DNA of 20,474 nt from an archaeon (lineage in GTDB: Archaea; Iainarchaeota; Iainarchaeia; Iainarchaeales; Iainarchaeaceae): NCBI GenBank assembly GCA_038046625.1, contig JBBSVV010000016.1, positions 1 through 20,474 of the forward strand, given 5' to 3'. Positions 168 to 19,343 of this stretch are shown here, one piece after another. The notes under the pieces were generated by a model. It did not search any database. It was not told the origin of the DNA and saw only the letters and a list, made by a program, of their open reading frames with translations. Made by a program: the position numbers and the translations under genes. Numbering within the stretch: position 1 is the stretch's first letter; every line of letters begins with the position of its first letter.

Positions 168-569
168 TTACCCAATCGGGTTTATTCCCTTGAATTGCGT
201 GAATCCCTTGTCGAAGGTTGCGATGTTTTTTATTCCGTTTTCCTGCATTGCCGCAATGCTTGTGCAATCCGTGAAGCTCAGTTCCTTCCCTTCGGCAAAT
301 AATTGCCACGCTTTTTCAAAATGCCACTGTGAAATGTGAATCAAGGTTATTTCTGAGTTGAGAATAGAGGTTCCGAGTGCCAAAGCCTTTGTGTGGCCCT
401 GCCTTGTGAGGGTAAAAGTGACGGCCTCGTCAAAAACGTAGGAAGAGGTGAAGATGCTTCCAAATTCGCCTTTCTTAATCAGCTCCGCTGTTTGCATTGC
501 CCTTTCGTGCATGGCCTCGCTTTTGTTTGCCAGTGCAATTACATAGCTCGTGTCGAGGAAGACGCTCAT
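168..569 (-). CDS. vapC: PIN-domain ribonuclease toxin (VapC family)
   Basis: 133 aa with PIN motifs VFLDTSYVIAL, TSSYVFDEAVT, LSFTDCTSIAAM and IATFDKGF. The start overlaps the upstream gene's stop (ATGA at 569-566). Confidence 0.93.
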   Translation of the reverse strand: MSVFLDTSYVIALANKSEAMHERAMQTAELIKKGEFGSIFTSSYVFDEAVTFTLTRQGHTKALALGTSILNSEITLIHISQWHFEKAWQLFAEGKELSFTDCTSIAAMQENGIKNIATFDKGFTQFKGINPIG

Positions 570-808
570 TTGTGGCCACCATAAAGAACTTCGTCAACCT
601 CGCTGCTCGCATTCCTGTTTTTCTTTCCCCAGTCCCATGCCTTAAGGTCGAAAAAGCTCTTTTCCTTTTTTTCCTTTTTTGCCTTTTTTTCCGCCCACTC
701 CCTCATCGCCTGCGTCACCGCCGCGCCCGTCTTCACTCCTGAGGCGACAGCAGTTGCCTTGAACTCCCTGAAAGTTTTCGGATCCACATCCCTTACGCTC
801 ATATTCAC
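566..808 (-). CDS. Putative antitoxin (VapB-like, ribbon-helix-helix-like N-terminus)
   Basis: 80 aa gene translationally coupled to vapC. N-terminal beta-alpha-alpha pattern (MSVRDVDPKTFREFKATAVASGVKTGAAVTQAMREW) and C-terminal SEVDEVLYG typical of archaeal antitoxins. AGGTGG SD at 820-815; start is GTG 808 or ATG 802. Confidence 0.8.
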   Translation of the reverse strand: MNMSVRDVDPKTFREFKATAVASGVKTGAAVTQAMREWAEKKAKKEKKEKSFFDLKAWDWGKKNRNASSEVDEVLYGGHK

Positions 809-876: not shown

Positions 877-1587
877 TCAAAGCCGTTTCATTGCTTTCTC
901 GGCCGTTTTTATCCTTTCCAATGTGTCTGTCGTGAACCATTTTCCCATGTGTTTGAACCCGAAAAGTTTTCCCTTTTTTGCCAGCGCGGGGAACATTGTG
1001 CGCTCAATCAGATTGAAGCCTTCAGGCAGAAATTCCATGGCCTTTTTTTCGATTATGTACGCGCCGGCATTCGCGAGGCTGCTCGGCGCTTTCTCGCGCG
1101 CAGGCTTTTCAACAAACTCAACAATTTTTTTCCCCTCAAGCTTTGCAACGCCGTAGCTCGAAACATCCTCAACGGAGACAAGCGCAATTGTTGCCAAACC
1201 TTTCATTGCGGAATGCTCTTTTGCCATTGATGAAAAATCAAAGTCCGCGATGTTGTCGCCGTTCAGCATGAAAAACTTTTTATCCAATAATTCCTCCGCC
1301 TGCTTCAGCGCCCCTCCGGTTCCAAGGGGCTCTGTTTCAACCGAGTAAACAATGCCCGCGCCGAATTTTTCCCCGGCGCCAAAATAAGATTCTATTTTTT
1401 CGTGCATATAACCTGTTCCGAGAATTATTTCGCGCACGCCGTGCTTCACAAGGTTCTCGATGCAGTACTGCAGAATGGGCTTTCCCGCAACCTTCACAAG
1501 CGGCTTCGGAATATTGTCCGTGAGTGGCCTGAGCCGTTCGCCTTTTCCGCCGGCGAGAACAAAAGCCTGCCTGATTTTGTTGACCGT
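877..1587 (-). CDS. Sugar-1-phosphate nucleotidyltransferase (NTP_transferase family, mannose-1-P guanylyltransferase-like)
   Basis: The frame of ORF 877..1497 stays open upstream and encodes the essential motif RQAFVLAGGKGERLRPLTDNIPKPL; EPLGTGGAL, LNGD, YGV and FVEKP follow. No in-frame ATG/GTG/TTG lies between the upstream TAG and this motif. Best candidate start is ACG at 1587-1585, 4 nt after GGTGA. Product is confident, start is uncertain. Confidence 0.85.
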   Translation of the reverse strand, partial: TVNKIRQAFVLAGGKGERLRPLTDNIPKPLVKVAGKPILQYCIENLVKHGVREIILGTGYMHEKIESYFGAGEKFGAGIVYSVETEPLGTGGALKQAEELLDKKFFMLNGDNIADFDFSSMAKEHSAMKGLATIALVSVEDVSSYGVAKLEGKKIVEFVEKPAREKAPSSLANAGAYIIEKKAMEFLPEGFNLIERTMFPALAKKGKLFGFKHMGKWFTTDTLERIKTAEKAMKRL

Positions 1588-1591
1588 GTTT

Positions 1592-1972
1592 TCACCGTGA
1601 CGAAGCGTTATTTTTTCCTAAACGAATTTTTCTGGTTCTTATTATTTTTTCCGTAATTACCGTGAATTCTTTTTCCGGTTCATGCGTGGCGCTTATTGCT
1701 CTTTTGAGCAGCCCAAACCTGATGTCCGCATCGGTGGTCGCGGTTCTCAGCAGCATTACTCCTGAGGATTTCATGTTTTTCCTGAATATGAGTTCTCCAA
1801 AATCCTTGTCATCGGTGATTATCACCCGCTTTTCTTTTGCCGCAAACCCAACGACTTTGTCGTCTGTCGCCCCTTTGAGTATCTCTGATACCGCTTTCAC
1901 ATCATAGCCGTTTCTTGACAGCAATCCGAAAATTTTTCTGCCCGTGGACTCATCAACAAGGAATTTTGGCAT
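1592..1972 (-). CDS. DUF5615 family PIN-like toxin (VapC45-like)
   Basis: 126 aa with KFLVDES, GATDDKV, RVIITDDKDFGEL and GVMLLR. Lies directly downstream of a DUF433 gene, the usual pairing. Confidence 0.88.
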   Translation of the reverse strand: MPKFLVDESTGRKIFGLLSRNGYDVKAVSEILKGATDDKVVGFAAKEKRVIITDDKDFGELIFRKNMKSSGVMLLRTATTDADIRFGLLKRAISATHEPEKEFTVITEKIIRTRKIRLGKNNASSR

Positions 1973-1978
1973 TGATTT

Positions 1979-2224
1979 TCACTTGAGGGCAATCTGCGTT
2001 ATTTTTTCGCCCTTAACGAGTCGTGCGCTGTACTCGAGAGCAGCGTAAATATCCTCTTTGGTTATTTTCGGGTAATCGGCAATAACGTTTTCAATGTTCA
2101 TGCCTTCGGCAAATCTTTTGATTATCGCATCTATAGGAATGCGGGTTCCCCTTATCACCGGTTTTCCGGCCATGATTCTTGGGTTTGCCACTATTCTCAA
2201 GGATATTGCTTTTTCTTGGTTCAT
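1979..2224 (-). CDS. DUF433 family antitoxin (VapB45-like, winged helix)
   Basis: RIVANPRIMAGKPVIRGTRIPIDAII...DYPKITKEDIYAALEYS is the DUF433 signature. ATG 2224 is preferred over GTG 2233 because TTTAAAA (2254-2248) lies 24-30 nt upstream of it. Confidence 0.92.
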   Translation of the reverse strand: MNQEKAISLRIVANPRIMAGKPVIRGTRIPIDAIIKRFAEGMNIENVIADYPKITKEDIYAALEYSARLVKGEKITQIALK

Positions 2225-2249
2225 GATCAACACTTACTGGCAAGTTGTT

Positions 2250-2309
2250 TTAAATTGTTTTGACGCCCACCCTTCCGCCCGCCAAAACAAAAGCCTGCTT
2301 AATACCCAT
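2250..2309 (-). pseudogene. Orphan 5' fragment of a nucleotidyltransferase gene (19 codons, MGIKQAFVLAGGRVGVKTI*)
   Basis: ATG at 2309-2307. IKQAFVLAGG matches IRQAFVLAGG of the gene at 877..1587. An AAAAAG-CATAAAT TATA-like element lies about 23-30 nt upstream. Confidence 0.8.
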
Positions 2310-2433
2310 GGAAATAAGGTGCACAAACGCAAATTTATGCTTTTTGCATTCCACACTCATTTTTCAGGGCAATTTTGGGAGTTGAACCAATTCCTTTAAA
2401 ATTACTGCCTGCGCCTTTTACATATATTCTTCT

Positions 2434-2441
2434 TTTATAAA
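2434..2441 (+). promoter_or_regulatory. Archaeal TATA box of the ugd operon
   Basis: TTTATAAA at -30 to -23 relative to ATG 2464, consistent with a leaderless or short-leader transcript. Confidence 0.55.
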
Positions 2442-2463
2442 ATATTGAATCCAGTGAAATTGA

Positions 2464-3747
2464 ATGAAAATAGCTGTTGTTGGAACCGGCTACGTCGGCT
2501 TGGTTGCGGGTGCATGCCTCGCCGATTTGGGCAACGAAGTGATTTGTGTCGATGTTGACGAGAAAAAGATAGCCGCGCTGAGGCAGGGCAAAATACCCAT
2601 TTATGAGCCCGGCCTCGAGGAACTCGTTGCGAAGAATGTGCGCGAAAAAAGGATTTTCTTCACTGTGGATTCCGCAAAGGCAATCCGCGAATCCAGAATA
2701 ATTTTCATTGCGGTAGGAACTCCGCAGGGAAGTGACGGGAGCGCGGATTTGAAGTATGTTTTCCAGGTTGCCGAAACCATCGGCAGGAATGCGAACGAAC
2801 CCAAAATTGTTGTTGATAAGAGCACTGTTCCTGTGGGAACCGCGAGGAAAGTCAGGGAACTCATAATGAAGCACTCGAAGCATAATGTCGAGGTTGTTTC
2901 GAACCCGGAATTCCTGCGCGAAGGCTCCGCAGTAAGGGACTTCATGGAGCCGGACAGGGTAGTGATAGGCGCTACTTCTGAAGAGGCTGAAAAAGCGATT
3001 TATGACTTGTACAGGCCTCTCGAATGCGGGATTCTCGTTACAACGCCCGAGAGCGCGGAGCTCATAAAGTACGCCTCAAACGCTTTTTTGGCGACGAAAA
3101 TTTCATTCATAAACGAAATCGCGAACCTCTCGGAGCTTGTGGGCGCTGACATAAACGAGGTCGCAAAGGGCATGGGTCTGGATGCGCGGATAGGGAAGCA
3201 CTTCCTCAATGCAGGGTGCGGTTACGGCGGAAGCTGCTTCCCCAAGGATGTGCAGGCGATACAGAAAATCGCGAAGGACAAAAACTATCCGCTGGAAATA
3301 GTAGAAGCAACGGAGAAGGTCAATGCGCGCCAGAAGCTTGTGCCGGTGCAGAAGCTCAATAAGGAATTTTCCTCTCTGAAAGGGAAAAAAATCGTGCTCC
3401 TCGGATTGGCGTTCAAGCCCAACACGGATGACATGCGCGAGGCCAGTTCCATTGAAATCGCGAATGCGCTCGTGAAGCAAGGCGCCACCGTAGTTGCCGT
3501 TGACCCGATTGCAAGGGAGAACGCGAAAAAGATCCTGAAAGGAATAGCTTACTCGGATTCCGTTTATGAGGCCGCGAAAGGCGCGGATGCAATAGTTCTT
3601 GTCACGGAGTGGAACGAGTTTCTGGAGCTCGACTTCGAAAAAATCGCGAAGGAAATGAAGTCCAAAATAATTGTTGACGGCAGGAATGTTTATGACAGGG
3701 AAAAGCTCATTTCATTGGGCTTCAAGTACAACGGAGTAGGAAGGTGA
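2464..3747 (+). CDS. ugd: UDP-glucose 6-dehydrogenase
   Basis: 427 aa with MKIAVVGTGYVGL, IAVGTP, KSTVPVGT, SNPEFLREG, AELIKYASNAFLATKISFINE, catalytic GYGGSCFPKD, GLAFKPNTDDMRE and IVDGRN. Confidence 0.97.
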   Translation: MKIAVVGTGYVGLVAGACLADLGNEVICVDVDEKKIAALRQGKIPIYEPGLEELVAKNVREKRIFFTVDSAKAIRESRIIFIAVGTPQGSDGSADLKYVFQVAETIGRNANEPKIVVDKSTVPVGTARKVRELIMKHSKHNVEVVSNPEFLREGSAVRDFMEPDRVVIGATSEEAEKAIYDLYRPLECGILVTTPESAELIKYASNAFLATKISFINEIANLSELVGADINEVAKGMGLDARIGKHFLNAGCGYGGSCFPKDVQAIQKIAKDKNYPLEIVEATEKVNARQKLVPVQKLNKEFSSLKGKKIVLLGLAFKPNTDDMREASSIEIANALVKQGATVVAVDPIARENAKKILKGIAYSDSVYEAAKGADAIVLVTEWNEFLELDFEKIAKEMKSKIIVDGRNVYDREKLISLGFKYNGVGR

Positions 3748-3753
3748 AATGTT

Positions 3754-4491
3754 TTGAGGGCAATGATACTTGCGGCGGGCTACGCGAAGAGGCTGTGGCC
3801 GCTCACAAAGAACAAGCCAAAACCATTGCTCGAGGTAAAGGGCAGGCCGATAATTGAGCACATCATAAAGCACTTCGGGGAAATTTCCGAAATAACCGAA
3901 ATAATAATTGTTACGAACAGCAGGTTCGCGCTCGAGTTTGAGCAGTGGGCCGAATCATTTGACGGGGAAACACCGATAAAGGTTATTGATGACTTGACCA
4001 CATCAAACGATGACAGGAAAGGCGCTGTGGGAGACATGCTTTGCGCAATCAACGAGGCAAAAATTGACGATGATTTGATGGTTATTGCCGGCGATAATTT
4101 GTTCGGGTATAAGCTTGCGGACTTCCACGCATTCTTCAGGGAAAAAAGAGCTTCTGTTGTCGCGTGCAAGGACATGCTTTCAATCGAGGAAGTCAAGGAG
4201 AAATTCGGTGTCGCGGAGCTGGATGGAAAAGGCAAAATCATCGGTTTCGAGGAGAAACCGGCGGAGCCAAAAAGCGCGTTGGCGGCAACCGCATGCTACA
4301 TTTTCACGAAAGCGGACGTGAAGGAAATAGGGCGGTTTATCGAGGCCGGAAACCCGCCCGACAATGCGGGCGATTTCATAAAATGGCTTGCCAACCACAA
4401 GCCCGTGTATGGCTTTGTTTTCACGGAAAAATGGTTTGATATCGGCTCGTTCGAGAACCTTGGAAAGGCAAGGGAAGAATTCGATGGCTAA
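3754..4491 (+). CDS. Sugar-1-phosphate nucleotidyltransferase (glucose-1-P thymidylyl/uridylyltransferase-like)
   Basis: MRAMILAAGYAKRLWPLTKNKPKPLL, IAGDNLF, FEEKP and WFDIGS. TTG start 6 nt after a GGTGA that contains the ugd stop. Confidence 0.9.
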   Translation: MRAMILAAGYAKRLWPLTKNKPKPLLEVKGRPIIEHIIKHFGEISEITEIIIVTNSRFALEFEQWAESFDGETPIKVIDDLTTSNDDRKGAVGDMLCAINEAKIDDDLMVIAGDNLFGYKLADFHAFFREKRASVVACKDMLSIEEVKEKFGVAELDGKGKIIGFEEKPAEPKSALAATACYIFTKADVKEIGRFIEAGNPPDNAGDFIKWLANHKPVYGFVFTEKWFDIGSFENLGKAREEFDG

Positions 4492-5039
4492 TTTTTTTCG
4501 CCCACAATAAGCAGGTTCAGGCCGAAAAGGAATGCCCTTGACTCGAGTATGGTGAACCCGTTTTTTTTCAGCAATCCCGTGAGTTCCATCAGGGTAAAGA
4601 TTTTTTGGTGGTCTTCCGCTGCAAATGATGACACCAGGCCTATTTTGCTGCCGATAGCATGGAGTTTGTCACCGAGCGTTGACGGGGTAGTGATTATTAT
4701 CCTTCCTTTCTTGTTCAGGATTTTGGTCACGTTTCTAACCGCCTGCCCGGGTTTTTTCAGGTGTTCTATGACTGCAATCATCGTGGCGGAGTCGAATTTT
4801 CCAAGTTCCGCGAGGCTATCTTCGGCGCTCACTTGCCTGTATGGGAATGTAATTGCGCTTGTCTTGGGGTGTATGTCTATTCCAGAGTAATAAGTATTTT
4901 TGGGCAGGAACTCCATGAGCTCACCGTGGTTGCAGCCTATGTCAAGGAGTTTTCCCCTGGCATATTTTGCCACTGCGGCATTCCTCTGCCTCATCAGGAA
5001 AAAGCTCAGTGCCCCTTGTTTTGTTCCCACTAAAACCAC
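4488..5039 (-). CDS. Class I SAM-dependent methyltransferase
   Basis: LLDIGCNHG motif I, GIDI, FDSATMIAVIEHL and GRIIITTP. GTG start uncertain (5039 or 5030). Convergent 4-nt overlap with the preceding gene. Confidence 0.88.
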   Translation of the reverse strand: MVLVGTKQGALSFFLMRQRNAAVAKYARGKLLDIGCNHGELMEFLPKNTYYSGIDIHPKTSAITFPYRQVSAEDSLAELGKFDSATMIAVIEHLKKPGQAVRNVTKILNKKGRIIITTPSTLGDKLHAIGSKIGLVSSFAAEDHQKIFTLMELTGLLKKNGFTILESRAFLFGLNLLIVGEKN

Positions 5040-5089
5040 TGATTGTTTTCGTATGGAATGAATTTAAAGCTAATTCATGTTAAATATGC

Positions 5090-7042
5090 ATGTTGACCAT
5101 GGGGAAAATTGTTGTTGCGGGCGGCGCGGGCTTCATCGGCTCGCATTTGTGCGGCTATCTTCTCGGAAAAGGCGAGAAAGTCGTGTGCATTGACAGCCTT
5201 GTTACCGGGAACAGGGCTAACATCGCGGGTTTGCTTGGCGACAAAAATTTTTCTTTTATCAACAGGGATGTTTCCGGGAAGTTCACTGTCAGGGGGGATG
5301 TACGCCAGGTTTACAACCTTGCCTCGCCCGCTTCCCCGGTTGATTACCAGGAGAAGCCGCTTGAGACTCTTGCGGCCGGTTCCAATGGAGTGAAAAACCT
5401 TTTGGAACTTGCGGAGGAGAAGAACGCCGCGTATTTGTTTGCCTCGACTTCGGAGGTTTATGGCAACCCCACTGAGCACCCGCAGAAGGAAACTTACTGG
5501 GGCAATGTGAATCCTGTCGGGCCGCGCAGTTGTTTTTCATCAGACACTCAAGTGCTCACGTATGAGGGATGGAAACTTTTCAACGAACTGGCCAAAGATG
5601 ATTTGATACTGACGAGAAACAGCAGTGGTTTCATTGAATACCATAAGCCTGTTGAAATAATCAAGGAAAAATATATCGGTGATCTCATCAGCTTTAAGAA
5701 TACGAAAATAGATTTGTTGATTACGCCAAACCATAATATGCTGGTGAAGGTACGTGGAAAATCAAGCTTTTCTTTTGTACCTGCCTTTGAAGGCATAACT
5801 TGGCATAAAGCAGAAATGCAAAAAGGTGCTAAGTGGGTTGGGGAGAATAAAGAGTATTTTTATTTACCTAAAGTAAAAAACTCCAAGAGTCCCGTAATAG
5901 AAAAAATAAAAATGCCTGATTGGCTGGAGTTTCTCGGTTATTTCCTTTCCGAGGGCTGCACTTACCTACAAAAAAAGAAGAAAACAGTTGGAGGAAAAAT
6001 TTATGATACGTTGGATTATGTTGTCTTAATTTCGCAATCCAAAAAATCTTCGCATAGGGAAAAGATAAGGTCATGCCTACAGAGATTAAATGTTAATTTT
6101 TTTGAGGAAAATGCGCAATTTAGGATTTTAAATAAGCAATTATTCTCTTATCTGGCAGTTTTTGGGAAATCAAAAGACAAATTCATTCCGCCTGAATTTA
6201 AATCCTTTTCTAAGGAATACCTGCAGATATTATTTGCTTCTTTAATGGCTGGTGACGGTTCAAGAGACGGGAAGGCATTTTATTCCAGTTCCTATAAATT
6301 GATAGGTGATATGCAAGAACTTTTGCTCAAGCTTGGTTGCGCCGGGTCAGTTGTGTCCAAAGATGCGCGTAAGAAAAACCCTGTTTACCAGATACATATT
6401 CTTACTGGCGAAAAAAAAGATTTTTTGACTCCTAAGTACCCAAAAAGAAATATTGTGAAATATGCTGGTGATGTTTATTGTGTCAATGTCCCAAATCATG
6501 TAATCTATGTGAGAAGGAACGGAAAAAGTGTTTTTTGTGGCAATTGCTATGATGAGGCAAAGCGTTTCGGCGAGGCCCTTTGCGTGGCGTTTTCAAAAGT
6601 TCGCGGTGTCGACGTTAAGATTGCGAGGATTTTCAATACCTATGGGCCGATGATGAGGAAGAATGACGGCCGGGTTGTCCCGAACTTTATTGAACAGGCG
6701 CTGGGCAATGAACCACTGACTGTTTATGGAAAAGGCGGGCAGACCAGGAGTTTTTGCTATGTAAGCGACATGGTAAATGGCATTTGCGCCCTCATGAACT
6801 CCCGGGAAAGGGGCCCCATTAACCTTGGGAACCCAGTTGAAACATCGATTTCCGGGCTCGCGGAAAAAATCATCAGGCTCTCCAAAAGCCGTTCAAGGAT
6901 AGTTTATCAGGAGCTTCCCATTGATGATCCTGAGAGGAGGCTTCCGGATATTTCCCTGGCAAAAAGCAGGCTATCTTGGGCACCTAAGGTGTCCCTGGAT
7001 GAGGGCCTGAACCTGACCATTTCATATTTTCAAAAACTTTAA
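5090..7042 (+). CDS. uxs: UDP-glucuronate decarboxylase (UDP-xylose synthase, extended SDR) precursor containing an intein
   Basis: GGAGFIGSHL, NLASPASPVDY, ASTSEVYG, ETYWGNVNPVGPRS/CYDEAKR, ARIFNTYGP, DGRVVPNFI, QTRSFCYVSD and DDPERRLPDI. Removing the intein leaves about 312 aa, the normal size. Start 5090 or 5099. Confidence 0.95.
   Translation: MLTMGKIVVAGGAGFIGSHLCGYLLGKGEKVVCIDSLVTGNRANIAGLLGDKNFSFINRDVSGKFTVRGDVRQVYNLASPASPVDYQEKPLETLAAGSNGVKNLLELAEEKNAAYLFASTSEVYGNPTEHPQKETYWGNVNPVGPRSCFSSDTQVLTYEGWKLFNELAKDDLILTRNSSGFIEYHKPVEIIKEKYIGDLISFKNTKIDLLITPNHNMLVKVRGKSSFSFVPAFEGITWHKAEMQKGAKWVGENKEYFYLPKVKNSKSPVIEKIKMPDWLEFLGYFLSEGCTYLQKKKKTVGGKIYDTLDYVVLISQSKKSSHREKIRSCLQRLNVNFFEENAQFRILNKQLFSYLAVFGKSKDKFIPPEFKSFSKEYLQILFASLMAGDGSRDGKAFYSSSYKLIGDMQELLLKLGCAGSVVSKDARKKNPVYQIHILTGEKKDFLTPKYPKRNIVKYAGDVYCVNVPNHVIYVRRNGKSVFCGNCYDEAKRFGEALCVAFSKVRGVDVKIARIFNTYGPMMRKNDGRVVPNFIEQALGNEPLTVYGKGGQTRSFCYVSDMVNGICALMNSRERGPINLGNPVETSISGLAEKIIRLSKSRSRIVYQELPIDDPERRLPDISLAKSRLSWAPKVSLDEGLNLTISYFQKL
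5531..6544 (+). mobile_element. Intein with LAGLIDADG homing endonuclease (338 aa)
   Basis: Block A CFSSDTQVLTYEGWK, block B LITPNHNM, LAGLIDADG-like motifs LEFLGYFLSEGC and ILFASLMAGDGS, block F GDVYCVNVPNHVIYV, terminus VFCGN followed by Cys+1. The DNA is visibly more AT-rich than the exteins. Confidence 0.95.
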
Positions 7043-7076
7043 TTATCCGTGTTTCCGGTTTATTTGGTGGTGTTGT

Positions 7077-7781
7077 TTGGCAAAAAAGCTTTCCATTGTG
7101 ATTCCGGCGTACAACGAGGAAAAAAATATTGTTCCAACCGTCAAATCCTATTACAATTTTTTTTCGGAAAACCTCCCGGATTTCGAGATTATAGTGGTTG
7201 TAAATAACAGTTCCGACAAAACCTTTGATTTGGCCAGCAAATTTTCTGCCGGCAGGCCGGAAATAGCGGTTCTCAACTTTGATTTTTACACTGGAAAAGG
7301 CGGAGCAGTAATCGAGGGATTCAGGGCCTGCAAAGGAAATTTGGCCGGGTTTGCCGATGCAGATGACTCCACCGTTCCTTCGGAATTTTTCCGCCTCGTC
7401 AAATGCTGTGATGAAGGTTTTGATGTTGTGATAGGCTCGCGTTCCGTAAATGATTCGGTCATCCGGAAAAAACAGCCCCTGTATCGTCGCATTCTCGGAA
7501 GCGGCTTCAGGTTCATTACAAACCTGCTGTTCGGGCTCGGGATTAATGATACCCAGTGCGGGGCAAAAGTGTTCAGCAGGAAAACTCTCGAGCTGCTGTT
7601 AAGGGAAAAAATTTCAAAAGGTTTTGAATTTGATGTGCAGATGCTCTGGATAGCGAAGCGCAACGGCCTCAGGATAAAGGAAAAGGGGATAAGGTGGTCG
7701 GACAACGCCGATTCCAAAGTAGGTTTTTTTGAGCCCTTAAAAATGCTTATCGGCCTGTTAAGGCTCCGTTTTGGAGGCTGA
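7077..7781 (+). CDS. GT2 glycosyltransferase, dolichyl-phosphate beta-glucosyltransferase (ALG5/DPG synthase)-like
   Basis: LSIVIPAYNEE, GKGGAV, FADADDS, VVIGSR, DTQCGAKVF and FEFDVQML. TTG start after a GGTGGTG SD. Confidence 0.9.
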   Translation: MAKKLSIVIPAYNEEKNIVPTVKSYYNFFSENLPDFEIIVVVNNSSDKTFDLASKFSAGRPEIAVLNFDFYTGKGGAVIEGFRACKGNLAGFADADDSTVPSEFFRLVKCCDEGFDVVIGSRSVNDSVIRKKQPLYRRILGSGFRFITNLLFGLGINDTQCGAKVFSRKTLELLLREKISKGFEFDVQMLWIAKRNGLRIKEKGIRWSDNADSKVGFFEPLKMLIGLLRLRFGG

Positions 7782-7787
7782 TGCAAA

Positions 7788-9482
7788 ATGGATTTTGAAC
7801 AACCCAAAAGGAATCCTCGCCATTCATGGCGAGGTTTTTGCTCGGATTCCTTTTCCGTTGACGGTCATCAAGAGACCTCACGGGCTTCAGCCCGTGGTGC
7901 TCAGAGATTTTTCTCTAAAACGGTTTTTTTCATCCTGATTTTTTTCCAGGTAATAATATTGTCCTCCGCCCTCACGGGTTTTTTTTGGCTGAACTCATAC
8001 TTCGTGCTTTTATTTTCACTTGTTTCCTCTTTTTTGATTTTCAAAAAATTTTATTTCAGTGAATTTGTTGTTCCAAAAAAAATTCTGCTTCTTTCCCTGC
8101 TGCTGGTTTCGCTCCTCGCGTATCCCGTGCTTTTATTGACGCCTTTCTTCCCCGCGAGCGCGGATCCAACAACTACGGGCAGCGTCGCTTTCCTCGGCGA
8201 TAAAATCCCGCAGGATTACCAGCCTTATTCCCCGCTTAATTTCGGGTACCAAATCGGGTTTCCCCTGCTTGTGAACGCGTTTTCGGATATTTTCACCTTT
8301 CTTCCCGTTTACCTGTGGTCATGGCTCCTGTCCCTTGTTTCGGGCGCATTGCAGCTGTTCGGGGTTTACTTTGTTGCGCGCGAATTCTTCAAAAGCGAAA
8401 AAGCGGCGGAGTTCGCATCATTGCTGTTTTTCGGGACCAAGCTTGTTTATGAAAACTTTTATGTGGGGGAATACGCGTGGCTGCTTGCAACCGGGCTAAT
8501 GCTGTTCACGCTGTATTTTGCCGCGAAAAAATCCGGCATGCAGTACCTTCTTTTCCCGGTAATATTGGTTCTTCATCCGGCAATAGCTTTCAACGCGCTT
8601 ATTTTCTTTGCCATTGCATGGCTTTTTTACCCGGGTTACTTTGAGCTGCCGAAAATTTTTGCTTCGGCCGTGTTCGCGCTTCCGGCCTTTTTTGCCAATT
8701 ATTCGCCCATAATTTTCAACGTTCTTTTCGGGGCCGGCCTGTCATCATGGGAGCCGGGAAGAGGTTTGCTGTATTATGCGCAGCTGCTTCCAACGTGGAT
8801 AGGGTTCGCGGTTTTTTTCGTGTTCGCGGTTTCTTTCGCTTACCTTGCCCTGCAAAAATTTTCTTTTACAAGGGAGCAGAAAATGTTCGGCGTGCTTTTT
8901 GCTTCGGGCACTTTGCTTTACCTGTTGTTCGGATTTTTCGGCGTAATGCTGGCGGGCAAGGCGGTTGAACTGGCGCTGCTGGGGGTTCTCTTTCTGGCCG
9001 CGTCTTTCCTGGAAAAAATACGCCTGCCGGATACAAGCCGGTTCAAACTGGCATTATTGGTTTTCTGCCTGGTTTTTTTCTTCACTTCCTCAATACTCAC
9101 GCATTATAGGGGCGGCTCTAAAATAACGCTTGAAGAGGCAACGTTTGCGGCCGACTTCAGGGAGTTCGACCCAGAATTGTCCAGAACACTCTTTTTGGCG
9201 CCTTACTCTTACAAAATCGCCGAGTTCTCAAACAAAGTGCCGTTTGACCTGACGGGGCATTACCTGAGTGATGTGAAACTGCTTTATTATTCGCAGGAAG
9301 AATACGCCAGGTTTAAGGGCCTCCCGAAAATAACGCAGTCAATAGTTGACACTTTGTGCGATGAGTGCATTGACGGCCTTGACGTAAAGTATGTTGTGGT
9401 CAAAAACGGTTATTACGGGAAAACCCTTGATTATCCCGTTGCCTTTTCAACAAGGGGTTTTGTGGTTTACAGGAAAACCTGA
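7788..9482 (+). CDS. Polytopic membrane protein, putative GT-C-fold glycosyltransferase
   Basis: 564 aa with more than 10 hydrophobic segments, an early loop ASADPTT...YQIGFPLL and a soluble C-terminal tail ending KYVVV...FVVYRK. Located behind a Dol-P sugar synthase. The function is inferred from architecture and context. Confidence 0.6.
   Translation: MDFEQPKRNPRHSWRGFCSDSFSVDGHQETSRASARGAQRFFSKTVFFILIFFQVIILSSALTGFFWLNSYFVLLFSLVSSFLIFKKFYFSEFVVPKKILLLSLLLVSLLAYPVLLLTPFFPASADPTTTGSVAFLGDKIPQDYQPYSPLNFGYQIGFPLLVNAFSDIFTFLPVYLWSWLLSLVSGALQLFGVYFVAREFFKSEKAAEFASLLFFGTKLVYENFYVGEYAWLLATGLMLFTLYFAAKKSGMQYLLFPVILVLHPAIAFNALIFFAIAWLFYPGYFELPKIFASAVFALPAFFANYSPIIFNVLFGAGLSSWEPGRGLLYYAQLLPTWIGFAVFFVFAVSFAYLALQKFSFTREQKMFGVLFASGTLLYLLFGFFGVMLAGKAVELALLGVLFLAASFLEKIRLPDTSRFKLALLVFCLVFFFTSSILTHYRGGSKITLEEATFAADFREFDPELSRTLFLAPYSYKIAEFSNKVPFDLTGHYLSDVKLLYYSQEEYARFKGLPKITQSIVDTLCDECIDGLDVKYVVVKNGYYGKTLDYPVAFSTRGFVVYRKT
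7798..7904 (+). mobile_element. Miniature IS200/IS605-end-like palindromic element, in frame within a CDS
   Basis: Hairpins CCTCGCCA-TTCA-TGGCGAGG (7815-7834) and CACGGGC-TTCA-GCCCGTG (7879-7896), plus an 11-bp inverted repeat AAAAGGAATCC/GGATTCCTTTT (7806-7816, 7844-7854). Related sequences occur at 13215 and 16937. Confidence 0.6.
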
Positions 9483-13214: not shown

Positions 13215-13262
13215 AACAACCCAAAACAATCCACTGCCTTTAGGCGGCGGTCTTTTTGGTCT
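13215..13262 (+). repeat. Partial second copy of the palindromic element at 7798
   Basis: AACAACCCAAAA-C-AATCC, then CCACTGCC-TTTA-GGCGGCGG, then TCTTTTTGGTC. Aligns with 7798-7843. Confidence 0.65.
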
Positions 13263-13268
13263 GCTATC

Positions 13269-13311
13269 TAGCAAACCACGAAAGTTTTTCAGTTTTTCCC
13301 GTGGTTTGCTA
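13269..13311. repeat. 43-bp palindrome (12-bp perfect arms)
   Basis: TAGCAAACCACG (13269-13280) and CGTGGTTTGCTA (13300-13311) around a T-rich loop. Confidence 0.8.
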
Positions 13312-13364
13312 TAGCATGTTTTTTAAACTAAACCGGGTTTGAATCCTTATTCACGGTGTTTTAA

Positions 13365-15236: not shown

Positions 15237-15238
15237 TT

Positions 15239-15385
15239 ATATCAAAAGACATTATTTTAAAAACTTTTCAAGAGGTCTTTTGCTAGCTACGATTCAAATC
15301 CTTTGGATTTGAATGTACATTCAAACCATCGGTTTGAATTGTATCAAAGGACAATTTTTGTTTCTTTATTTTTGTCCTTTGATAT
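15239..15385. repeat. Cluster of four hairpins filling a convergent intergenic gap (REP/MITE-like, possible terminator role)
   Basis: TATCAAAAGAC...GTCTTTTGCTA (15240-15285); ATTCAAATCC-TTT-GGATTTGAAT (15292-15314); ATTCAAACC-ATC-GGTTTGAAT (15319-15339); TATCAAAGGACAA...TTGTCCTTTGATA (15342-15384). Confidence 0.8.
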
Positions 15386-16896
15386 TATTTGCAGGTCATC
15401 ATATCTGCGGTTATCCCATTTTCTTTCATGAACTCTTCCAAAGGTTTTACATCGGCTTCTAACCTGTCTGTTTTCATAAAAGCCTGTATTGAGAATTCTG
15501 TTCTGGGGAAAAGAGTGATCCTGCTGGAATAAATGTTATCCAGCCCCCCGTTTTCCTTTACCCAGCACGTGTTTCGAACCTTATAAAATAATTGTTCGGC
15601 CGTCATTACTTCCACCCTCCGGTCCCCGAATTTTTCAAAAAGAAAACTGACCGTGTGCCCGCCTTTGGTGTCAACCAATAGCGCCCCTTCCTTTGTTGAA
15701 TCGTAAATCTGCATTGAAACATCGTATTTCACCTGTGTTTTTTCCGACTGGACCATGAAAATCAGGCCGGTTGTAACGAGGAAAACAATTGCAACCCCAT
15801 AAATGGCCCTTTGCTTGTTTATGAACCCGATTTTTCCTTCCGCAAATCCAATTGCTTTATCCGCAAACGGAACCATGGCAAACAGGAACAGCGGCATCAG
15901 CGGTATAAAGTACCTGCCGTCAGGGACAATTGCCGAAAAGGAAAAAACCATTATTACAAGAGCCGTTGCCAGCAATGTTTCTATTTTTAGGTGTTTTGCC
16001 TTAAGCAAAGCGACAAGTGTCAGGGGGAACAGCAGCATTAATCCGCGTGACATTGAAGGGTGAATTCCCGCAACCAGGAACAGCGTGTACTGGATTGCAT
16101 AATCAGCCATTTTGAAAATGTCAAAATCCTGCTTGAACCCGCCCTGAATGTTGAACTCATTTGCCGCAAGGTAAGTGTATCCCCAGGGAGTTCCAATCAT
16201 GAGCTGGGTCACAATAAATGACGGCGCAGCCGATATGGCTATTCCAATCAGTAAACTCAGCGGGATTTTATCCAATAAACTTCCCTTATTTTTCCATGAT
16301 TTTATTTGGGCGCCCACAAGAAACGCCAGTATTATTGCCGCATTGGTAACCCTGAACCACACGGATAATCCCAAAAAAATTCCGGCGATAAACTGGTTTT
16401 TATCGAGTTTATTGCCGAATAACTTTTCCTTTTTTTCTTTGAGGTAAAAATAAGCCCCTGCCAGTATGAGCGCCGCCGATGCAATTTCCCCCAAAAGGAA
16501 TTTGTGCGCCACGATTGTGAGTGAAGGGTAGAAAAGGTAGATAAGCGAATATCTCGTGTCATAATTTTTCAGTTTCAGTATTTTGTAAAAAAACAGGAAC
16601 CCCAAAAGGTGGAAAAGCATTCCAAGGACGAACGGGGCGTTCCACGAGATTAACGTGAATGGCGCGCTTATGAGTGTCCTGCCGATTTCAAACGGGTAAA
16701 CAAAAGTCCCGTTTCCGGTCGGCCACATGTAATAGGCGTATTGTGCATCGGTTTCCAAAAATTTTCCTTCCCACAGCCAATGCGCCGTCCTAATGGTTCC
16801 GAGATAATCGACGTCCCAGAAATGCGGGTAAAAGGCAAAGAACATTGACGCGAATATCAATGCGAAAACAAAATACTGCATTTTGCCGGGCTTCAT
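15385..16896 (-). CDS. Polytopic membrane protein, putative GT-C-fold glycosyltransferase (PMT/ArnT-like architecture)
   Basis: 503 aa. First TM followed by WDVDY, then YPFEIG, LFYPS, GEIASAALI, GIFLGLSVWFRVTN and GRYFIPLMP. TTTTTAAAA TATA at 16926-16918. Confidence 0.7.
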   Translation of the reverse strand: MKPGKMQYFVFALIFASMFFAFYPHFWDVDYLGTIRTAHWLWEGKFLETDAQYAYYMWPTGNGTFVYPFEIGRTLISAPFTLISWNAPFVLGMLFHLLGFLFFYKILKLKNYDTRYSLIYLFYPSLTIVAHKFLLGEIASAALILAGAYFYLKEKKEKLFGNKLDKNQFIAGIFLGLSVWFRVTNAAIILAFLVGAQIKSWKNKGSLLDKIPLSLLIGIAISAAPSFIVTQLMIGTPWGYTYLAANEFNIQGGFKQDFDIFKMADYAIQYTLFLVAGIHPSMSRGLMLLFPLTLVALLKAKHLKIETLLATALVIMVFSFSAIVPDGRYFIPLMPLFLFAMVPFADKAIGFAEGKIGFINKQRAIYGVAIVFLVTTGLIFMVQSEKTQVKYDVSMQIYDSTKEGALLVDTKGGHTVSFLFEKFGDRRVEVMTAEQLFYKVRNTCWVKENGGLDNIYSSRITLFPRTEFSIQAFMKTDRLEADVKPLEEFMKENGITADMMTCK

Positions 16897-17001: not shown

Positions 17002-18075
17002 TTATTTTTCGGATAAAATTTTTCTGTAAATTTCAAGGTGCTTTTTTGCGGACTGCCCCCATGTAAGTATTTTCGGGTTTTTCGCGGCAAATTTTCCGGG
17101 GTTTTCAAGGACTTCCAGGATTACGGAAGCGGTTTCCTCTTTATTTTCCGGGTCGCGTATTCCCACGACATACTTTTTTTCAATGAACTCCGGAACGGAA
17201 TCCGCGGTCGTAATAACGGGGAGCCCCATTGCAAGGGCTTCCATGACAACGGTTGAAACATTCCTGAAGCCCAAGAGCAGAATGAAAACGCCCGCCTTTT
17301 CCAGTTCTTTTACATATTCTTTCCTGCCGAGACCGCCCCTGAAAATAATGTTTTTTTCCGCCCCAAGGCTTTTTGCGAGCCCGGCAAGGTTTTCCCTTTC
17401 TGGGCCGTCCCCCACTATGACGAGTTTTGCCTCCGGTTTTTTTTCAGCCACCATTGCAAAAGCCGGAATAAGGTTTGAATACCCCTTGTTTTTGACCAGC
17501 CTGCCGGCGCAAAGGAGCCTGTACTTTTCCGGTTTTGCCCCGGATTTTTTCACCTCTTTAGGGTTAACCCCGGGGTAAATTATTTCAGATTGCGTGCCCC
17601 TGAAAATTTTTTTGTACATCTTTTTTTCGTCTTCCCCGAGGAACATGACAAAATCTATTTTTGAAGAGAACAGCCAGACAATAAAATCAAACACTTTTCT
17701 GAAGATTCTCGTTGCAATGGAATTCGCCCCGGAACTGCACGGGTAAAAAACAAGCTTTTGCCCCGCTTTTTTTGCAAAAATCCCGAAAAAACTTACGAGG
17801 TTGTTATAGCCGTTCAATTGCACGATGTCCGCGTCCGATTTTCTCAGGGCCAAAAAGAGGGGGATTGAAAGGTAATAGCTTTCGTTTGGGGCCCAGGCTG
17901 GAAATTCTTTCACCTCAATCCCTTCCATGGTGCTGTTTTCCGGTTTGGGCGAAGTAGTGTAGATTTCCGCCCTCACCCTGAGTTTGGCCAGCTCTTTTGC
18001 AATGCTAAGTGTCAGGTTTTCAAGCCCCGTGCTGTACAGTCTCGGCGTGCGTGGGCATGTAAGGATTACTTTCAT
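17002..18075 (-). CDS. GT4 family glycosyltransferase (GT-B)
   Basis: MKVILTCP, IYPGVN, AGRLVKNKG, LVIVGDGPER and VVMEALAMGLPVI. ATG 18075 overlaps the upstream stop (ATGA), so the extension to 18195 is not credible. Confidence 0.92.
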   Translation of the reverse strand: MKVILTCPRTPRLYSTGLENLTLSIAKELAKLRVRAEIYTTSPKPENSTMEGIEVKEFPAWAPNESYYLSIPLFLALRKSDADIVQLNGYNNLVSFFGIFAKKAGQKLVFYPCSSGANSIATRIFRKVFDFIVWLFSSKIDFVMFLGEDEKKMYKKIFRGTQSEIIYPGVNPKEVKKSGAKPEKYRLLCAGRLVKNKGYSNLIPAFAMVAEKKPEAKLVIVGDGPERENLAGLAKSLGAEKNIIFRGGLGRKEYVKELEKAGVFILLLGFRNVSTVVMEALAMGLPVITTADSVPEFIEKKYVVGIRDPENKEETASVILEVLENPGKFAAKNPKILTWGQSAKKHLEIYRKILSEK

Positions 18076-19343
18076 AATTCTTCCACGCCGCTGACAATCC
18101 TTACTTCCGGAATCGGTATGACGTATTTGCCGTTTTTTTCCCTGAACTCTTTTACCTGCGAGACCTTGGAGATTATTTCTTTTGAGAAGTTCCACGGGAA
18201 AATTATTATGTAATCCGGCTTCATTTCCCTTATTGCTTCAAACCCTTTGACCGGTATTTTTGTCCCCGCGTACAGCAAACCCTGTTTTTCCGGGGTTTCA
18301 TCCACAATGAATTTTATAAAATCCCTGTTTATGCCGCAGTAATTGAGCAGCGTATTCCCTTTTGCCGCCGCCCCAAAGCCCGCGACAAGTTTTCCTTCTT
18401 TCCTGAATTTCCGCATGAGCCGGCTGAAATCTCTTTTTATTTTTTCCACGTTCTCCCTGAACCTATAGTAAGTTTCAATCCTGTCAAGGCCGTTATTTTT
18501 CTCAAACTCAAGCAGTTCTTTTACAGAATCCTTGTCCTCAAGTGGGTTGTCCTTGTTTACCGCATAAATCCTTAATGCCCCGCCATGAACCGGGAATATC
18601 CTGGCATCAAATATGCGCATGCCGTGTTTCCCGAACAAAAATGTCAGCGGCCTGAGAAGAAAGTATGACAGGTGCTCGTGGTAAATCGTGTCAAACTCGG
18701 TTTTGCCGATAAGGTCCCCCGCATAATGGAATTCGAAAATCAGCATGCCGTCCTCTGCGAGGGCTTTTTTCGCGTTTGCCACAAACCCGTTCACGTCGTG
18801 AACATGCGCGAAAACATTTGTCGCCGTAATGATTTTTGCCTTTCCCCTCTTGGTGATTTTTCCCGCGGTTTCCGGGCCCCAGAACTCGCAAAGGGTTTCA
18901 ATGCCCCTCTCATTTGCAATCTTCGCAATATTTTTCGCGGGGTCAACCCCGAGCACTTTGAACCCTTTTTTCTTGAATTCATTCAAAAGGCAGCCGTCAT
19001 TGCTCGCGATGTCAACAACCAAGGTATCTTTTGGATTGGGGAAGTACTGCTTTGCCACTTCCGCCATTTCAGAGCAGTGGTTCTGGAAAGTCCTGGAAAT
19101 GGATGACCTGTAAGGGTAGTATGAGAACAGGATTTTCGGGTCAACCACCAGGCCGAGCTGTGACAGCCCGCAGTTGCCGCAGTACATGACTTCGAGCGGG
19201 AACCTCGGCTCTTCCTCGGACTCGCCTTTCACGAACCCGTTTGCAAGCGGCAGGCTGCCCAGGTCAAGGTAGTTTGTGAGGTCCTGGGAACCGCATATCC
19301 TGCAGTGCTTGAGTTTGATGTTATTTGCGGTCAAATCAGCCAT
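18072..19343 (-). CDS. NDP-hexose C3-methyltransferase (TcaB9/KijD1/NovU-like)
   Basis: CRICG...CGNCGLSQL Zn site, YPYRSSIS, VVDIASNDG, NVFAHV, FDTIYHEHLSYF, HGGALR, GFGAAAKGNTLLNYCG and PDYIIIFPWNF. TTTAAAAA TATA at 19375-19368. Confidence 0.93.
   Translation of the reverse strand: MADLTANNIKLKHCRICGSQDLTNYLDLGSLPLANGFVKGESEEEPRFPLEVMYCGNCGLSQLGLVVDPKILFSYYPYRSSISRTFQNHCSEMAEVAKQYFPNPKDTLVVDIASNDGCLLNEFKKKGFKVLGVDPAKNIAKIANERGIETLCEFWGPETAGKITKRGKAKIITATNVFAHVHDVNGFVANAKKALAEDGMLIFEFHYAGDLIGKTEFDTIYHEHLSYFLLRPLTFLFGKHGMRIFDARIFPVHGGALRIYAVNKDNPLEDKDSVKELLEFEKNNGLDRIETYYRFRENVEKIKRDFSRLMRKFRKEGKLVAGFGAAAKGNTLLNYCGINRDFIKFIVDETPEKQGLLYAGTKIPVKGFEAIREMKPDYIIIFPWNFSKEIISKVSQVKEFREKNGKYVIPIPEVRIVSGVEEL

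Follow-up and report, generated by a model that had tools for sequence, protein, structure and literature searches.

Toxin-antitoxin (TA) pairs that join a PIN-like toxin to a DUF433 (COG2442) partner have been described before. VapBC10 of Synechocystis, a PIN-COG2442 pair, is toxic and neutralised (PMC3834315), and the Mut7-C-like PIN groups COG4634 and PIN_10, which have DUF433 partners, are listed as potential TA toxins (PMC5499597). In this work we analysed a stretch of 20,474 nt (contig JBBSVV010000016.1 of assembly GCA_038046625.1, hereafter the window) from a tiny groundwater archaeon (DPANN, Iainarchaeum group), where a DUF433 antitoxin-like gene and a gene for a DUF5615 PIN-like toxin lie inside the start of a gene for a sugar-1-phosphate nucleotidyltransferase (NT). 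Like the VapBC-like COG2442/Mut7-C PIN pairs (VapBC10, VapBC45 of M. tuberculosis, COG4634 and PIN_10), this pair is made of two small co-directional genes, DUF433 first and PIN-like second; unlike them, it occupies the 5' end of a housekeeping-type gene, which would be its downstream cistron. We found no paper naming DUF433 together with DUF5615, and no search was aimed at TA insertion into gene starts.

Displaced gene ends are also familiar. In orphan Rhs and CdiA-CT ends a new module bearing a copy of the conserved resident part recombines with the resident gene, and the old end is left stranded. Ends of type VI secretion system (T6SS) effectors, together with their immunity genes, are another example of such displacement (PMC5361080). 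As in those systems, an old gene end is stranded here beside a newly arrived module; unlike in them, where the displaced ends are 3' toxin tips, a TA pair has here displaced a 5' end together with its promoter, and has done so in a gene for a sugar nucleotidyltransferase.

Elements integrating into tRNA genes, and the integrated plasmids and viruses of archaea, share with this locus the target direct repeats that flank the insert and a spare end that keeps the gene whole. In contrast to them, the 728 bp considered here contain no integrase, the repeats match at 26 of 31 nt and the doubled part is the 5' end of a protein gene. A further precedent is homology-facilitated illegitimate recombination, to our knowledge shown only in bacteria. 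In that process foreign DNA is inserted by one homologous and one illegitimate joint (PMC3240628). As known from naturally transformable bacteria, the process would leave a retained resident piece, foreign cargo and a gene with the donor's end, the arrangement described below; here it is read from its product alone.

We propose that the locus is probably an old insertion of the TA pair into the first 12 to 19 codons of the NT gene, which brought a replacement gene start with it; the result would be a fossil, and one-sided recombination its probable source. As a cassette the pair is unremarkable; the unusual features are that it sits within a gene start and comes with a spare one, that the stub of the old start has lasted for so long and that the new one has lost its start codon.

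Results

The start of the NT gene is doubled around the TA pair

The host genome is a metagenome-assembled draft of 986 kb in 57 contigs, and it encodes a TATA-binding protein, which identifies the host as an archaeon. On the minus strand of the window the NT start is found twice (Table 1). The upstream copy is a stub that opens with an ATG (2309-2307), reads MGIKQAFVLAGGRVGVKTI over 19 codons and ends in a TAA (2252-2250), with no NT-like sequence beyond about codon 19. The downstream copy reads ..NKIRQAFVLAGGKGERL, in frame with the PF00483 nucleotidyltransferase that continues to 877. These two copies, identical at 26 of 31 nt and spaced by 728 nt, were the sole direct-repeat family in a repeat search of the region; their longest identical run is 13 nt, and four of the five differences are synonymous. 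The same search yielded no pair of inverted repeats in 1300-2600, and a 1061-nt query for the cassette matched one single place in the genome. By a rough estimate made by hand, a 26/31 match within 1.3 kb has a chance probability of ~5e-5, and chance is ruled out by the same doubled architecture in a second genome, that of a sister species (G001), which was assembled independently. An earlier reading of this DNA (the original prediction) had described a 19-codon stub with its own ATG mirrored 728 bp downstream, the 13-nt core with mostly synonymous differences around it, and nothing between the copies except the DUF433/DUF5615 pair and its promoter. The frames and the repeat search, the Pfam matches and a TATA-like box at 2256-2248 bear this description out.

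The region is covered by contigs of four sequencing runs from two studies. In three of the four, a single contig spans 983-2900 (977-2900 in run X4) with 0 to 3 other letters; the contigs of the second study, 6845 and 6851 nt long, span 983-2900 and 977-2900 with 1 and 3 other letters, respectively. The locus is no assembly artefact. In the low-depth run X6 the contigs end at 1545 and resume at 1577, exactly over the downstream repeat, a gap that proves nothing.

Relatives carry the undivided gene start

The NT gene and a UDP-glucose/GDP-mannose dehydrogenase gene (UGDH) are arranged divergently in the loci of 17 relatives. The distance from the UGDH ATG to NT is 132-257 nt in 12 of these loci, 350 nt in one, 795-888 nt in the three loci L006, L008 and L009, where other small open reading frames (ORFs) have been inserted, and 1321 nt in G001. 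On this comparison 13 of the 17 relatives (gap of 132-350 nt) have empty sites, for which the original prediction had proposed to look. A second QAFVLAGG-like stretch was seen in only two of 18 loci, those of the window and of G001.

In at least 15 of 16 relatives an A/T-rich box, identified by eye, precedes the NT ATG by ~22-32 nt, which is where such a box is expected when archaeal transcripts are leaderless. The full NT copies of the window and G001 have no such box, and the 3' end of the toxin gene occupies its position. Furthermore, the NT of L009 begins with MGIKQAFVLAGGKGERL, and the stub peptide MGIKQAFVLAGG matches this start. The ancestral placing of the TATA-like box, the L009-like N-terminus and the lack of a box at the full copies indicate that the stub is the original gene start on its original promoter.

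In related genera the spacer between UGDH and NT has received small cassettes of other kinds. L006 and L008 (genus g2) hold a two-ORF insert whose second ORF is weakly DUF2283-like (20.3 bits, below the cut-off), and L009 (genus g4) has a 167-aa ORF inserted there. These inserts lie upstream of the NT promoter, have no stub and give only weak Pfam matches.

The block is much older than its surroundings

The order of genes in G001 is UGDH, an extra ORF of 125 aa, the stub, DUF433, DUF5615 and NT. The extra ORF (L003, 338-715) is related to the second ORF of the L006/L008 inserts, and its DUF2283 match is far below the cut-off. The G001 stub (MRIKQAFVLAGGGGSTV...) has 27 codons, with a stop that overlaps the DUF433 start as ATGA, and the full NT gene starts with an ATG (MAKKITQAFVLAGG, MAKKITQ), unlike the stub (MRIKQ).

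By blastn, G001 is 97.6% identical to the window over 2382-5526, 97.4% over 6545-7790 and 91-97% over the rest of the window; beyond NT, where G001 resumes on another host contig, identity is 96.3%, in contrast to only 78.6% over the TA and NT block (880-2225). Synonymous divergence (dS) from G001 is 0.91 for DUF433, 1.28 for DUF5615 and 0.82 for NT, versus 0.083 for UGDH, and the divergence is even along the TA-NT block. Since the block is far more diverged than its flanks (dS ~1 vs 0.083), the insertion must be old. Judged by these distances, the stub, TA pair and NT form an allele class of considerable age, some ten times that of the separation between the two backbones, and at least one of the two genomes must, on the same evidence, have received its block by recombination.

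Within this diverged block the beginning of the stub is conserved. Its 12 codons differ between the window and G001 at 11 of 36 nt and in one of 12 residues; when 11 random substitutions were drawn in 200,000 trials, none changed so few residues. The promoter region and the stub codons after the twelfth barely align between the two genomes. In the eight-codon core QAFVLAGG, the stub goes with the full copy from the same genome at three variable sites and with the other stub at none, the differences being 3 within a genome and 6-7 between genomes. The first four codons, on the other hand, group stub with stub ([G/R]IK), as opposed to KKIT and NKIR in the full copies. This pattern suggests that the core of the stub has been converted from the full copy by gene conversion between the repeats. 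Codon bias as a source of the shared codons was considered and set aside; the two genomes are 91-98% identical outside the block.

The block belongs to a variable island that ends on the right at 2382, and the second TA-like pair (Table 1) is part of the same island. Where the window has this small-ORF/PIN pair, G001 has an ORF for a membrane protein of 203 aa, and no G001 match was found left of 880. Runs X2, X4 and X6 show four linked single-nucleotide polymorphisms at 755-802, and in X4 a stretch of 107 letters between 856 and 965 has been replaced; strains therefore differ on the left side of the island. Outside the island, an ORF for an NAD-dependent epimerase/dehydratase (5090-7042, plus strand) contains an in-frame, intein-like insert of ~1 kb (5527-6544) with a LAGLIDADG domain (PF14528), which is missing from G001, where the alignment jumps from 5526 to 6545 at 97% identity.

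The full NT gene has lost its start codon

The NT frame is open from 1617, just after an in-frame stop (1620-1618), and between this stop and the G-loop of the enzyme there is no ATG, GTG or TTG. The first canonical start is a GTG at 1497, already beyond the G-loop. An ACG stands where G001 has the NT start ATG, a point that the original prediction had missed. All 19 orthologous loci of relatives have an in-frame ATG at most six codons before QAF[VI]LAGG. No other letter was found at position 1586 in the contigs of the four runs and two studies, with contig depths up to 43; the ACG in place of the NT start codon is real. The ACG leaves two possibilities for NT, low-level synthesis from a near-cognate start or a very recent silencing.

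The ratio of nonsynonymous to synonymous divergence (omega) of NT relative to G001 is 0.146. Among 39 residues that differ between the two proteins, compared with 18 outgroups, six are derived on the window branch and ten in G001, and 23 are ambiguous. The single NT polymorphism seen in the run contigs, at 1174, is silent. NCBIfam gave sub-threshold matches only, to several NDP-sugar transferases, with no equivalog at cut-off.

A VapBC-like pair with two putative promoters

The DUF5615 match covers profile positions 2-108 of 110. Six nucleotides separate the stop of the antitoxin gene from the ATG of the co-directional toxin gene, and the DUF433 gene has an alternative GTG start at 2233. In a scan of metagenomes (80 loci kept of 178 relatives, best identity 54%) and in one of genome contigs (80 loci), DUF433 adjoins a relative of the toxin in 76 of 80 loci each time (152/160). 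Omega relative to G001 is 0.158 for DUF433 and 0.11 for DUF5615, values that point to purifying selection on both genes. The domains, the pairing and the selection lead us to classify the pair as a predicted VapBC-like type II TA system. The toxin was found in only two of the 23 genomes of the family, which, with the gene order shared with G001 and the divergence of the block, speaks for a single old event.

Two TATA-like boxes, P1 and P2, precede the stub and the DUF433 gene. They are putative promoters, and both have counterparts at matching places in G001: TTTTTTAAAAAC, before its stub, for P1 and ATATAAAAC for P2.

A second doubled gene start in the same genome

A blastn comparison of the genome with itself at word size 11, which would miss more diverged repeats, found 37 pairs of direct repeats 200-3000 nt apart. 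Gene-start duplications among these pairs were found only at the locus described above and at abce1 on contig C3, and none of the 37 pairs comprised the other TA pairs with doubled gene starts for which the original prediction had proposed to search. At the start of abce1 (C3:38213-38461; locus L106, 614-863) a dispersed element of 169 nt lies between two copies of the first 40 nt of the gene, ATG included; this element has more than 20 partial copies in G001. The abce1 gene of G001 has a single copy of this start (an empty site), identical at 40/40 nt to the upstream copy; the downstream copy has five differences, all silent. The upstream ORF ends in a TGA that overlaps the real ATG. Rfam gave no match inside the insert and, elsewhere in the locus, IMES-1 at E 0.27. 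At both loci a selfish insert stands between two versions of a gene start that show silent differences; what sets the loci apart is the insert itself, a non-coding element of 169 nt at abce1 as opposed to a TA pair that lacks hairpin ends.

A repeat pair on contig C30 that was considered as a gene-start duplication proved to be two copies of a palindromic dispersed element. Dispersed repeats of this palindromic type (TGGTCTGCTATCTAGCAAACCAC...GTGGTTTGCTATA) occur in the window at ~13260-13320 and 15237-15390 and on C30 at 1307-1399 and 4018-4110, and G001 has dozens of matches, with 83-91% identity, to pieces of them of ~48 nt. On contig C56 a perfect 28-nt direct repeat (17510-17537 and 18737-18764), at the 3' end of a 1240-aa ORF, brackets ~1.2 kb with ORFs of 128 and 172 aa; this may be an insertion with a doubled gene end.

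Table 1. Position and basis of the features at and around the doubled NT gene start.
Feature	Position	Strand	Basis or remark
Second TA-like pair (small ORF and PIN), just downstream of NT	168-808	-	PF01850 E 6.7e-14
Sugar-1-phosphate nucleotidyltransferase (NT) gene	877-1587	-	PF00483 E 5.6e-44; G-loop LAGGKGERL intact
Direct repeat, downstream copy, within full NT gene	1545-1575	.	repeat search
ACG where G001 has the NT start ATG	1585-1587	-	alignment of GTGAAAACACGG (window) with GTGAAAACATGG (G001)
DUF5615 PIN-like (Mut7-C group) toxin gene	1592-1972	-	PF18480 E 4.5e-20, 72 bits vs cut-off 23.8
DUF433 (COG2442) antitoxin-like gene	1979-2224	-	PF04255 E 9.6e-23, 80.2 bits vs cut-off 23.6
P2, TATA-like box AATTTAAAA, putative promoter, centre ~28 nt before DUF433 ATG, includes stub stop codon	2248-2256	-	
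NT stub: ATG and 12 conserved codons (MGIKQAFVLAGG), 7 unrelated codons, TAA	2250-2309	-	
Direct repeat, upstream copy	2273-2303	.	repeat search
P1, TATA-like box ATAAATTT, putative ancestral NT promoter, centre ~26 nt before stub ATG	2331-2338	-	
Conserved intergenic part, recombination breakpoint at 2382	2382-2463	.	81/82 nt identical to G001
UDP-glucose/GDP-mannose dehydrogenase gene (UGDH), divergent neighbour	2464-3747	+	PF03721, PF00984, PF03720

Discussion

According to the reading that we favour as the probable one, the incoming DNA would have carried the TA pair directly before another NT allele. One of its ends would have been joined by homologous recombination within the NT gene and the other illegitimately, 12-19 codons into the resident gene, leaving the resident promoter, the ATG and the first 12 codons upstream as the stub, and the gene would have taken the start of the donor (MAKKITQ... 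in G001). Integration of a circle by a single crossover would give the same product and is an equally possible route. The start of the full copy is one codon longer than that of the stub and has other residues, which implies that it is no plain duplicate of the stub, and the small cassettes taken up by the UGDH-NT spacer in other genera make the supposed donor state plausible.

The original prediction had the TA pair enter with a replacement 5' end, as integrative elements do. The first part of this proposal agrees with the empty sites in relatives and with the ATG-initiated MAKKITQ start of G001. The mechanism fared worse: the repeats are not identical, there are no inverted repeats, and the 728 bp hold no recombinase or integrase (only the two TA genes), the whole window not having been scanned for recombinases.

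Several points weigh against the insertion that we propose. The donor arrangement, a TA pair before NT with no stub, was seen in none of the 80 metagenome loci and in none of the 80 genome loci; among the latter only L109 (Candidatus Iainarchaeum andersonii) has the pair beside NT, and with the same architecture, and no match to NT or UGDH was found in the 80 metagenome loci. Two candidates were judged uninformative, an NT-like match of 29% identity in L147, on the other strand and 1.3 kb away, and weak UGDH-like pieces in L118. The junctions are too old to show microhomology, and one-sided recombination, integration of a circle and insertion with a long duplication are not distinguishable. 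The case for gene conversion comes from three informative sites in two genomes, while promoter use, co-transcription and translational coupling are read from the sequence. We know of no case in which ACG initiation works in archaea. Beside this ACG start, the NT gene appears, from its substitutions, to be free of decay and of any excess of derived residues.

The main rival is a process with a long target duplication, in which unknown machinery making target duplications of 30-40 nt, as for the small hairpin elements of this genome, would have left two copies that were identical at first and diverged later. The doubled 40-nt start of abce1 around a dispersed element of 169 nt shows a comparable product in the same genome. 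However, the TA cassette has neither inverted repeats nor hairpin ends and is single-copy in the genome, and the two gene starts differ in length and residues (MAKKITQ vs MRIKQ), as pointed out above. The abce1 case itself is too uneven for a recent duplication, as its downstream copy has five silent changes in 24 nt and its upstream copy none relative to G001. We therefore regard this explanation as unlikely.

The stub could instead be the last remnant of an upstream paralogue, born from a tandem duplication of NT and mostly replaced by the TA pair. This is the fallback that the original prediction had named, a decayed paralogue, and we consider it improbable. The genome does encode other PF00483 proteins (3754-4491 and one gene on contig C49), but their identity does not exceed 37-49% and QAFVLAGG is absent from them. 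Two copies of the NT orthologue at the locus occur in none of the 17 relatives, nothing NT-like is seen beyond about codon 19, and both the promoter on which the stub stands and its distance from UGDH are ancestral.

We also weighed whether the repeats are a live recombination substrate. The start-less NT gene would then be silent until a crossover in the core re-fuses the leaderless promoter and the ATG onto the gene, and the locus may be a one-way switch for a surface-glycan precursor, possibly reversible through a circle and checked by toxin addiction; we give this little credence. The excision switch contained in the original prediction, in which the repeats recombine, the 728 bp are lost (perhaps in the form of a circle) and NT is switched on with an ATG start under the old promoter, so that glycan synthesis is tied to loss of the TA pair, seems to us slightly less probable still. 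The original prediction was right that a crossover in the core would remove the pair and give an intact ATG-initiated gene, for the rebuilt start, MGIKQAFVLAGGKGERL, is the natural N-terminus of L009, and it would lie under P1. In addition, the present NT gene has no start codon, so switching would have a phenotype, and the codon pattern suggests sequence exchange between the repeats. Against a switch, the contigs of the four runs show no joint that skips the 728 bp (rare variants are lost from contigs), the repeats share an identical core of no more than 13 nt, the architecture has persisted through a dS of ~1, the full copy of G001 has an ATG and needs no switch, and deletion of an antitoxin gene should be self-punishing. 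Thus, of the two fates named in the original prediction, a fossil insertion is the better fit to the diverged block shared with G001, and the switch finds no support in the contigs.

Finally, a chimera of two strains, conceivable in a metagenome-assembled draft of 57 contigs, is practically excluded by the second-study contigs that bridge the locus and by the same architecture in the independently assembled G001.

Returning to the old insertion with a replacement start, the NT gene has no TATA box of its own and is most likely the last cistron of the TA operon, transcribed, as we propose, from P1, P2 or both. Its translation would be coupled to that of the toxin, 4 nt separating the toxin stop from the ACG at the start position; gaps of 6 nt and 4 nt suit termination-reinitiation, a process described for archaea (PMC6728339). 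Expression of NT would then follow the regulation of the TA operon. The stub would stay recognisable through repeated conversion of its core from the full copy. A crossover between the repeats would remove the TA pair and bring back the ancestral gene, and the toxin would select against loss of the antitoxin gene.

If the repeats were indeed a live substrate, selfish cassettes (TA pairs, hairpin elements, homing endonucleases) would have a general route into leaderless genes of DPANN archaea, namely to displace the gene start and supply a spare copy of it, and excision, if true, would constitute a new kind of toxin-guarded genetic switch. The old insertion that we favour would mean that a selfish module of two genes can lodge in an intact gene of an archaeon with leaderless mRNAs, and leave that gene undestroyed, by bringing a spare start, and that the host gene is captured as the downstream cistron of the module, which would place a sugar-nucleotide step of glycan synthesis under the control of a TA operon. 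The locus would also offer two natural tests, namely whether ribosomes can reach downstream genes by way of a leaderless stub ORF and whether, after termination-reinitiation, translation can begin at the near-cognate ACG. Taken with the abce1 case, our results suggest that the displacement of gene starts is a recurrent mode of genome change in DPANN archaea.

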